A stretch of DNA of 60,607 bases, filler included, from Platydemus manokwari (Eukaryota): assembly GCA_037951405.1 (NCBI GenBank). It is 5 parts of 5 records of this genome, joined end to end, with 100 filler letters (N's around TTAATTAATTAA, not from the genome) between each part and the next. Parts side by side here need not be neighbours in the genome. Positions count along the whole stretch, not along the records: positions 23,758 to 35,288 come from JBBMOY010511109.1; 4 more parts are not named here. One strand, given 5' to 3'. Of this stretch, positions 27,390 to 29,206 are shown in pieces. The notes beneath the pieces are model-generated. The model saw only the letters and a program-made list of their open reading frames with translations, did not search any database and was not told where the DNA came from. A program made the position numbers and the translations under genes. How positions within the stretch are numbered: the stretch's first letter is position 1; each line of letters starts with the position of its first letter.

Positions 27390-29206
27390 AATCCTTTATT
27401 TTTCTTAGTCATGCTATTAATTTTCAGTATCGGTGACAAGGTTGGTACATTAATTGTGTGTGACTGTTCTAAGACTGAGCCGTTCAAAGTTTATTCACTT
27501 TTAAATGTTGCAGAATGTCCGGACGCATATCCCACGAATCTCACAACATAAGAAAACGAGCACTATTATCTCTATTAATAATCAAATTTTCGAAGAGCAC
27601 AAGTTAAAGAGTGTCCAGTAAAGAAAACTACATTTGTTTTTCACTGTGGAAGGTGGAGCCACGCATCTGAATTTTACTCCACGCGATACCCAGACCAATA
27701 GATATAGATGCAGATAATTGTAAATCTACTTTTCAAATAAATGAATTAAAAATAGATTCTCAAATTAAATTGGCAGCGAGAGAAGGTTTCATAATGAGAG
27801 AATCAATTACTGTCAAGGGGACGCTAGAAGCAAATGGATCTTGTGTCGGGGAACCACACAAGATTTTGAATAGAAAAGTAGATCACGCAATAGTAACAGA
27901 GGAATATTCGTAAGACAACGAAATAAGACAATGGGAAGCATTATTCGATGAAGCTACAGAAAAGATGCAAACAAACCCATTTTACAATTCTAAATCTAAA
28001 AGTTGCAATACTGGATAATCTGTTTTAGTATATGATGTGAAAACGAATGAATGCAACTTAGCATTTCTAGAAACAAGTGATTTCATTGAGATAAGTGGTG
28101 AACAATTTCAAGACCAAATACAACAGCTTTCTTCAAAACAAATCTCCAAATCAGGACGAAAATCAACATCAATTAATAAAAGGAAAACACCGATGGTCTT
28201 GATGTCTGCAATTACCAATGATGGTATGTGTTTTATCAGCAAAGAAAACAAATTCTACAGACTAATTACAAAGGTCTATATGTGTCCAGGGCACAAATCG
28301 AAGGAGCGAGGAAGAAAGTTCTCAATGCTGATATAAAGATAACTCAATATTTAAGTAATAAATTAGATTTTTTATTTCATTTTAATCAAAGAACAGTAGC
28401 AAATATGTACCAAGAAATGACTGCAAATTAAATAGAGAAACACTAAAAAATCGCATGGCTATGGTGATTACAAATTCAAATTTGGTTGCTCCAATGTTGG
28501 TAGTGGAAAACGAAATATTTGGACAGGCTCTATGTAGCTACAGATGTAAAGAACTATTAGCTCATTTAATGAAGTATAACATTTGCACAAACGAATTACC
28601 AGTTAATATAGAAGGGAAACTACGTTTCATGGAACCTATAACTAGAATCTTATTCGGAGAAGAAGTAAAACCAAAAACAATGGAATGCAATGGATTAATA
28701 TTACCGCTGTTCAGATTATCCCAATATAAATGGATATAATTACCTGACAGAAAGCTAGTAACAAATCCTGAAAATTTAGAACTGACCGAATTGGATTATT
28801 TAAATAATCTTACTTCTCTTAATAATTTTGAGAACACTGGAATATACTCTGCAGAAGACCTGAAGGAGGCTAGAAGGAACCTTTTGTTTCCATCAAAAAC
28901 AAGAGAGAGAGTTATAACAAAGTTAGTCGAAAAGAAAGAGTATCAGAGTAAATTATGATTATTTATTGACACCAGATCACTTCTAGAAAGCCACACACGA
29001 AATTATGAAAAAGATTTGGGGTAGATTTGTTTATTTTGATCAAGCATGTGCAGGACTTATTGGGATAAATGTAATATTATTAATAATAAAGACAGTTATG
29101 GGACAAAATCTATCAACATATCGTCTCTATAATATTGTAGGAATATCTTGAAAGCTAATCATCAGGTGTGTACCATTTTTAGCAACAATTTTTATTATAA
29201 ATCATC
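27390..29206 (+). pseudogene. env: Element A envelope: chuvirus-type (class III-like) fusion glycoprotein with signal peptide and C-terminal TM
   Basis: LFFLVMLLIFSI signal; VCDC..YSLLNVAECP; ECPV..FHCGRWSHAS; CTNELPV..RFMEPITRIL; GIYSAEDLKEARRNLLFP; WGRFVYFDQACAGLIGINVILLIIKTV; several stops and frameshifts. Confidence 0.85.

Follow-up and report, generated by a model that had tools for sequence, protein, structure and literature searches.

The question raised by this locus is what kind of element once carried its chuvirus-like fusion glycoprotein gene, and whether the two copies of the gene, here called A and B, belong to one element family or to two. The DNA analysed (60,607 nucleotides, filler included; hereafter the window) had been described in an initial annotation as holding two divergent paralogues of a captured glycoprotein within Ty3/Gypsy elements. 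Our main reading, which we hold at a probability slightly below 0.9, is that copy A is the broken env gene of a Ty3/gypsy remnant in which env precedes the protease, likely of the planarian Burro-like or GAG-ENV-POL kind, and that copy B, half of which is deleted, comes from another family of this type. The position of env before the protease, the most telling feature of the locus, was missed in the initial annotation. The features of copy A are as follows:

26459–26665 (+): possible second ubiquitin-like domain, more decayed and weak (8.2 bits, E 8e-4; shuffled maximum 4.6 in 50)
26865–27389 (+): 174-codon frame in the same frame as env, with a stop directly before env; ubiquitin-like domain at 26919–27092
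27390–29238 (+): copy A env, a gB-type (class III) fusion glycoprotein gene, recognized by Pfam PF24664, profile columns and cysteines
29608–29935 (+): aspartic protease remnant in two frames (pol profile columns 15–123, E 5e-5 and 2e-5)

The env gene of copy A is nearly full length but dead, being composed of five collinear frame pieces with 8 in-frame stops and 4 frameshifts (near 27680, 28245, 28415, and 28940). It retains a signal-like hydrophobic segment (approximately 27396–27431), the conserved cysteines (12 of the 14 invariant columns kept, one changed and one falling in a gap) and a C-terminal anchor (approximately 29050–29100). An env profile of 637 columns, built from 12 intact relatives, is covered from column 6 to 633 by the five collinear pieces, each scoring 44.6–153.3 bits, against a best score of -0.5 bits in 10 block-shuffled six-frame sets. 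Homology extends slightly beyond the end of the span first proposed, 27390–29206, and continues to 29238. When the single frames of 27390–29302 were scanned against Pfam with stops written as X, PF24664 (Monjiviricetes_fusion) matched two of the three (E 2.6e-27 and 8.6e-11) and was not detected in the third; it also matched two open frames of copy B (E 7.6e-8 and 5.9e-7), and the four scores (95.5, 40.9, 31.2, and 28.3 bits) all lie above the curated cut-off of 27 bits. Six-frame translation places YSLLNVAEC at 27492 (+), DIKITQY at 28330 (+), ELPV at 28593, GIYS at 28839 and WG.F..F....AG.I from about 29017. These agree with the motif set of the initial annotation (SLL..EC, ELPV, GIYS, and WG.F..F....AG.I), apart from the literal GYDC, which occurs in no frame of the window: copy A reads VCDC and copy B GYDG.

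A contig identical to 27414–28105 is present in the one sequencing run that matches the window, which may be the window's own sample; since this contig shows zero differences, the breaks of copy A within 27414–28105 are in the data. Other contigs of the run cover the same places of copy A with many differences, and the family of copy A therefore likely has additional, diverged copies; read depth in this run is not usable as copy number. One run in total holds the window stretch, and no RNA runs are listed as doing so.

Upstream of env, the ubiquitin-like domain at 26919–27092 was recovered by leave-out profiles from the relatives at 28.5 and 37.3 bits (shuffled maximum 4.6 in 50); profile A2 matches the ubiquitin-like domain of UHRF1 (E 7e-4), and the last approximately 40 codons of the 174-codon frame align with the pre-env region of relatives. 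A Rad60-SLD match on this frame (Pfam E 0.018) was discounted as lying outside the ubiquitin-like region. The protease remnant is situated approximately 370 bases 3' of env and matches P0153, one of the relatives, by tblastn (E 4e-7). Taken alone it gives no protease match in Pfam, and the pol profile detects no RT or integrase after it. Copy A reads, in order, ubiquitin-like domain, stop, env (frame unchanged) and protease remnant.

Copy B retains less of env and more of pol:

54685–56493 (−): 602-codon frame with the env signal-like segment at its end and a Bcl-2-like candidate inside
55104–54889 (−): weak Bcl-2-like BH1-BH2 region just before env (leave-out profile 5.2 bits)
53760–54742 (−): copy B env, N-terminal half only (Pfam PF24664; profile columns 33–362)
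52385–53326 (−): protease, linker and first RT motif (gag-asp_proteas E 1.7e-8; pol profile columns 5–320)
51816–52384 (−): integrase with its H2C2 zinc domain, a portion of the core and a C-terminal remnant (Integrase_H2C2 E 7e-16)
49765–51437 (−): post-integrase region in broken frames, with three hydrophobic segments by hydropathy and a threonine-rich stretch

Here env extends over approximately 54830–53760 (−), with one frameshift and one stop, its C-terminal half and membrane anchor having been deleted. It is placed on env-profile columns 33–362 in two pieces (83.7 and 178.6 bits) and keeps all 10 of the 10 invariant cysteine columns within columns 45–357; the motifs YSLLDIEQC, YVYQESEF, and DIKLFQY are found by six-frame translation at 54730, 54655, and 53879 (−), respectively. 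Downstream, the match to the pol profile breaks off at column 320 and resumes at 756: the RT core and RNase H are deleted, and the first RT motif joins the integrase zinc domain directly. Protease, RT start and integrase follow one another in copy B; copy A shows the protease only. The integrase is 39% identical to those of the relatives P0153, P0155, and P0004. The Bcl-2-like candidate is the window's best place for the leave-out profile (shuffled maximum 2.2 in 50). We nevertheless regard it as weak, because the region alone has no Pfam match and because no Bcl-2 family structure appears among the listed fold-search matches of its model, itself of low confidence (pLDDT 65). A ubiquitin-like domain at the start of the 602-codon frame looked plausible by eye and was not found by the leave-out profiles. 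The post-integrase frames are possibly the remains of membrane proteins; they show no sequence match to the C-terminal regions of relatives, and an atlas search returned no usable match for either the Bcl-2-like region or the post-integrase frame. Beyond copy B, at 47858–49436 (−), lie acidic, low-complexity frames with the same strand skew, which may be accessory frames of the element.

The initial annotation was right that A and B can be aligned, with the quoted motif pairs at their places: aligned as proteins, with X at each break, they share 30% identity across 333 columns (E 2e-47), and single-frame matches reach E 6e-10 and 6e-11. No DNA-level match exists between them. In both copies env lies 5' of the protease, and of the domains of Burro type that precede env, A has the ubiquitin-like one and B the weak Bcl-2-like one, neither copy showing both. 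Both are decayed and deleted: a repeat search in the window found no LTR pair around either, a gag profile matched nowhere in the window (the N-terminal part of the 602-codon frame included), and a complete RT is absent from both. Their classification consequently rests on the protease, the integrase and the relatives. Both copies are dead and can yield no full Env and no polymerase. Judged by their sequences, they are two old element families and not local paralogues, so that the earlier term was misleading; the distance between them is about that between Smed_errantivirus_1 and Smed_errantivirus_3, given as 32.1% identity in a table of PMC13524379. Rfam returned 0 matches.

What such elements look like when whole can be seen from their relatives. 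A search with P0001, a protein 53% identical to the C-terminal piece of copy A, against 1.84 billion representatives gave 894 matches at E 0.001, and among the best 150 of them the top ones are long polyproteins. In 12 of the 16 long relatives examined, env shares its frame with a protease that follows it; six also contain RT, RNase H and integrase. A pre-env ubiquitin-like domain occurs in five of the 16 and a Bcl-2-like domain in five, the same five of each from which the respective profiles were built; P0164 and P0017 possess both. The organization of intact relatives is Gag-(Ubl)-(Bcl-2)-Env-PR-RT-RH-IN, encoded in one frame. In P0164 the order is Ty3 capsid, zinc knuckle, ubiquitin-like domain, Bcl-2 (Pfam E 0.0015), env, protease and ankyrin; gag is likewise present in P0014 and P0007. 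The profile of alignment A1 matches Bcl-xL (E 7e-5). A hydrophobic segment stands just before the YDC/FDC motif in all eight relatives printed, with a second one at the end of env. None of these eight has a furin-type site in the env ectodomain; the single match, in P0007, falls at the extreme C terminus of env. One relative carries the label of a bacterial protein from a metagenome bin, which likely reflects eukaryotic contamination. Two or more aspartic-protease-like domains each were noted in P0002, P0004, P0007, P0014, P0153, P0155, P0164, and P0165; P0155, with 4,844 residues and ankyrin repeats, is near the stated length of Burro1. Shallow word-index protein searches yielded one match of 614 candidates and six of 7,999, and P0001, used as a query on metagenome contigs and on viral contigs, gave no locus (52 and three pattern matches, respectively, none confirmed).

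The fold of env was modeled on P0005, a natural protein 34% identical to copy A, with a 90-row alignment that included chuvirus-like rows (mean pLDDT 83, pTM 0.59). Herpesvirus gB fills the listed PDB rows of the Foldseek search (best E 9e-14), and in the viral library chuvirus-like G proteins lead, with that of Tacheng tick virus 4 at E 3e-43. VIA-align superposes the model on herpes gB with Z 10.9 and an rmsd of 7.5 over approximately 389–400 residues; residues 10–79 of the same protein align with Bcl-xL (Z 7.2, rmsd 2.2, 70 residues). The model gives the env of this intact relative the class III fold shared by herpes gB and chuvirus G. Together with the PF24664 matches, this bears out the earlier identification of a chuvirus-like class III glycoprotein, since Foldseek and VIA-align both return gB, the match having been obtained on the intact relative and not on the broken copies.

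The phylogeny of env separates these genes from free-standing glycoproteins. For FastTree we used 95 rows, namely 97 of 161 proteins covering at least 380 profile columns, less five near-duplicates, plus P0001, A and B. In this unrooted tree A and B fall with all 16 polyprotein envs in a group of 22 rows (SH 100), and IQ-TREE recovered the same split, also unrooted, from a chosen subset of 28 rows (support 100/99). Named rows outside the group are Tacheng tick virus 4, Wufeng shrew chuvirus 2, Wenling fish chu-like virus and proteins of beetle and wasp origin. A pairs with P0001, while B, which fills half of the columns, has no resolved place within the group; A and B are not sisters in either tree. 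Scores tell the same: up to 414 bits against polyprotein envs versus 121 at best against stand-alone G proteins. Copy A is at most 37% identical to any long relative and at most 24% to the sampled stand-alone chuvirus-type G proteins. The proposal of a lineage apart from sampled named chuvirus and insect glycoproteins is thus upheld by the 100/99 branch and the score gap. The companion claim of capture from a chuvirus is not, as unrooted trees such as these cannot point to a donor and none of their rows was identified as an Anakin env.

These results also bear on what else the two copies might be. The best named structure and sequence matches are chuvirus-like G proteins, and fossils of such glycoproteins are common in arthropods (PMC10084718), so A and B could be stand-alone endogenous chuvirus glycoproteins with retroelement debris nearby by chance. 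The neighbors of both copies, however, stand in the same order as in intact polyproteins, and this in-order linkage of ubiquitin-like domain, env and protease largely refutes fossils; the score gap and the separation in the trees also speak against them, and we consider this explanation very improbable. An origin in BEL/Pao elements is just as hard to credit. Anakin has the same kind of glycoprotein, and an RT core is missing from A and, through deletion, from B; the relatives, though, carry Ty3_capsid, Retrotrans_gag and RT_RNaseH, and the integrase of copy B is 39% identical to gypsy-type relatives. Peptidase_A17 and DUF1759 are marker families of BEL/Pao elements, and neither is listed for the 31 proteins scanned. 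The env-like genes of Roo, Tas, and Cer-7 are located downstream of pol, unlike those of A and B. The carrier is most probably of Ty3/gypsy type, as first proposed, by the protease and integrase of B and the gypsy-type domains of relatives.

That two homologues occur 25 kb apart along the window might suggest a domesticated host fusogen or a local duplication producing true paralogues. We see next to no chance of this, given that both copies are broken, share 30% protein identity and no DNA match, have each their own element context, are non-sisters, and that other diverged copies of A exist in the same read set; unless the genome has an intact single-copy orthologue elsewhere, their stops and frameshifts already refute the idea. 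It is, in turn, somewhat easier to imagine, albeit improbable, that elements of the same kind reached another invertebrate host (a nematode, a bryozoan or other) by descent or horizontal transfer, for GAG-ENV-POL elements are known from Nematoda and Bryozoa too (PMC13524379). Against this, copy A shares 56 of 115 residues with Smed_errantivirus_1 by eye, more than the 37% at best that it shares with a long relative, the two divergent families both track Schmidtea lineages, the ubiquitin-like domain before env matches Burro, and the window's G+C content of approximately 28% resembles the more than 70% A+T of Schmidtea. A planarian host is therefore likely, as judged from env similarity, Burro-like domains and low G+C, and the probable flatworm origin first suggested for the locus gains from the by-eye likeness to Smed_errantivirus env and from motifs in the supplement of PMC13524379.

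We return to the reading of A and B as remnants of two Ty3/gypsy families with env before the protease. By analogy with relatives, an intact element would translate one long frame into a polyprotein, whose Gag and accessory domains (ubiquitin-like and Bcl-2-like) would remain cytosolic. Env itself would be targeted to the ER lumen by the internal signal sequence, with signal-peptidase cleavage immediately ahead of the conserved YDC/FDC motif; beyond the Env anchor the chain would lie in the cytosol again, and the element's protease or proteases would release PR, RT-RH, and IN there. On budding particles, a gB-like class III trimer is the form predicted for Env; it would fuse the particles with other cells, allowing the element to pass from one cell to another. 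These steps, from cytosolic Gag, signal-peptidase release and Pol release to the trimer and spread, are drawn from general membrane-protein and retroelement biology.

A further membrane protein may be encoded after the integrase. In P0004, P0008, P0015, P0153, and P0155, the five relatives that extend past the integrase, the pol frame goes on to encode a signal-like segment and a second anchor, together with a variable domain that is threonine-rich in some of them, so that two hydrophobic segments are present in five of five; copy B retains corresponding hydrophobic remains. The attachment partners of herpes gB are gD and gH/gL. One could envisage a single polyprotein combining a gB-type fusogen before pol with a fast-changing target binder on a threonine-rich stalk after the integrase, the Bcl-2-like domain being anchored by the env signal and sparing the producer cell. 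We rate this arrangement as doubtful, since the post-integrase regions resemble neither one another nor that of copy B.

The layout recognized here is a known one, and the suggestion of a new clade or an unreported capture is not supported. Besides the work cited below, Burro/GYPSM1 was reportedly treated by Jurka in 2007 and Grohme in 2018, and a preprint is said to describe an anti-apoptotic protein in Burro1. Burro/GYPSM1 elements are giant gypsy-like LTR retrotransposons of planarians with one frame of 4,873 residues encoding Gag, MATH, Ubi/SUMO-like, BCL2-like, env and PR-RT-RH-IN (Arkhipova and Yushenova, 2019, PMC6431247). According to the same source, the env matches mononegavirus fusion glycoproteins and lies in frame between gag and pol, the elements reach more than 30 kb with LTRs around a frame of approximately 4,900 residues, and decaying fragments of Burro type with stops and frameshifts were noted in Dugesia japonica. 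As in Burro, env precedes the protease in A and B, a ubiquitin-like domain stands before env in A and a weak Bcl-2-like candidate in B, and ankyrin repeats are seen in the relatives P0155 and P0164. In contrast to Burro, the window copies are fragments with no evidence of LTR, gag, MATH, BIR or dUTPase, and the likeness is one of description, not of alignment.

The second known system comprises the GAG-ENV-POL "errantiviruses" of Nematoda, Bryozoa and Platyhelminthes with HSV/gB-type ENV (Chary and Hayashi, eLife 2026, PMC13524379), which include nine flatworm elements, among them Smed_errantivirus_1–6. That paper likens the gB-type env to Chuviridae envelopes, argues for an ancient origin and states that the entry mechanism of these elements is unknown; its main text makes no mention of polyproteins or of Bcl or ubiquitin domains. 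Both window copies share with these elements a gB-type env 5' of the pol genes, and are dead, unlike the Smed errantiviruses, which are intact and often multi-copy (1–215 copies). By eye, with no computed alignment, copy A follows Smed_errantivirus_1/2 (24 of 39 and 32 of 76 residues shared with Smed_errantivirus_1 in two stretches) and copy B follows Smed_errantivirus_3, with which it shares the motifs GWSS.GGYC.GG.Y and TP..YMAD. Among five window motifs looked up in the supplement of PMC13524379, HAIPRP and YVYQES occur once each in the file, in Smed_1, and GWSS once, in Smed_3; TPMVL and CGRWSH have no exact match there.

More distant is Anakin, a group of mosquito BEL/Pao elements with a glycoprotein of the same superfamily (Dezordi, 2020, PMC7642597); it differs from the elements of A and B in belonging to Belpaoviridae and in its arthropod hosts. 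The location of the Roo, Tas, and Cer-7 env-like genes downstream of pol is taken from the same paper, and gypsy fragments have been reported beside such glycoproteins in insects (PMC10084718). Chuviridae/Monjiviricetes G (PF24664) and herpesvirus gB have the profile match and the predicted class III fold in common with A and B, whereas Chuviridae-type G proteins are stand-alone genes of approximately 650 residues. A second membrane protein after the integrase goes unmentioned in the planarian-element section of PMC6431247 and in the sections of PMC13524379 consulted. In the searched text of PMC8532177 there is no passage with Burro or env as a whole word, and Troyka (PMC12440569) is unrelated.

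Taken alone, a further pair of dead copies of an already published kind is of little significance. The copies nevertheless tie together the papers on Burro and on gB-type GAG-ENV-POL elements, because these sequences combine the accessory domains of Burro with membership of the gB-type GAG-ENV-POL group, and they indicate that at least two Schmidtea env lineages coexisted in this host. They also touch on the question of whether elements with a gB-type env make cell-to-cell particles in animals with adult stem cells, which dead copies cannot answer.

Several other features were observed in the window. At 56796–57192 (+) there is a separate integrase fragment that runs opposite to copy B and has lost an internal part (pol profile columns 787–840, then 997–1075), with up to 60% identity to P0153, and at 1217–1516 (−) a short reverse-transcriptase remnant of another retroelement. 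A host class C (metabotropic glutamate-like) GPCR is encoded at 8631–9833 (−; 7tm_3, E 8e-40), likely with a further exon at 12564–12971 (−); the nearest match of the exon is 65% identical and a fish receptor 29%. A 325-codon frame at 3378–4355 (+) has a RING finger and a coiled-coil-like tail, and two long helical-looking exons at 40280–41404 and 42764–43948 (−), with no Pfam match, resemble spectrin-repeat rods by eye. A tandem array with a 13/26-base period occupies 37528–38320. Dispersed short repeats, 74–83% alike, are found at 33845–34157, 36560–36852, 7690–7807, and 31982–32096, and at 17914–17982 and 25632–25699; the repeat near 25600–25700 has very high summed depth in the sequencing run.
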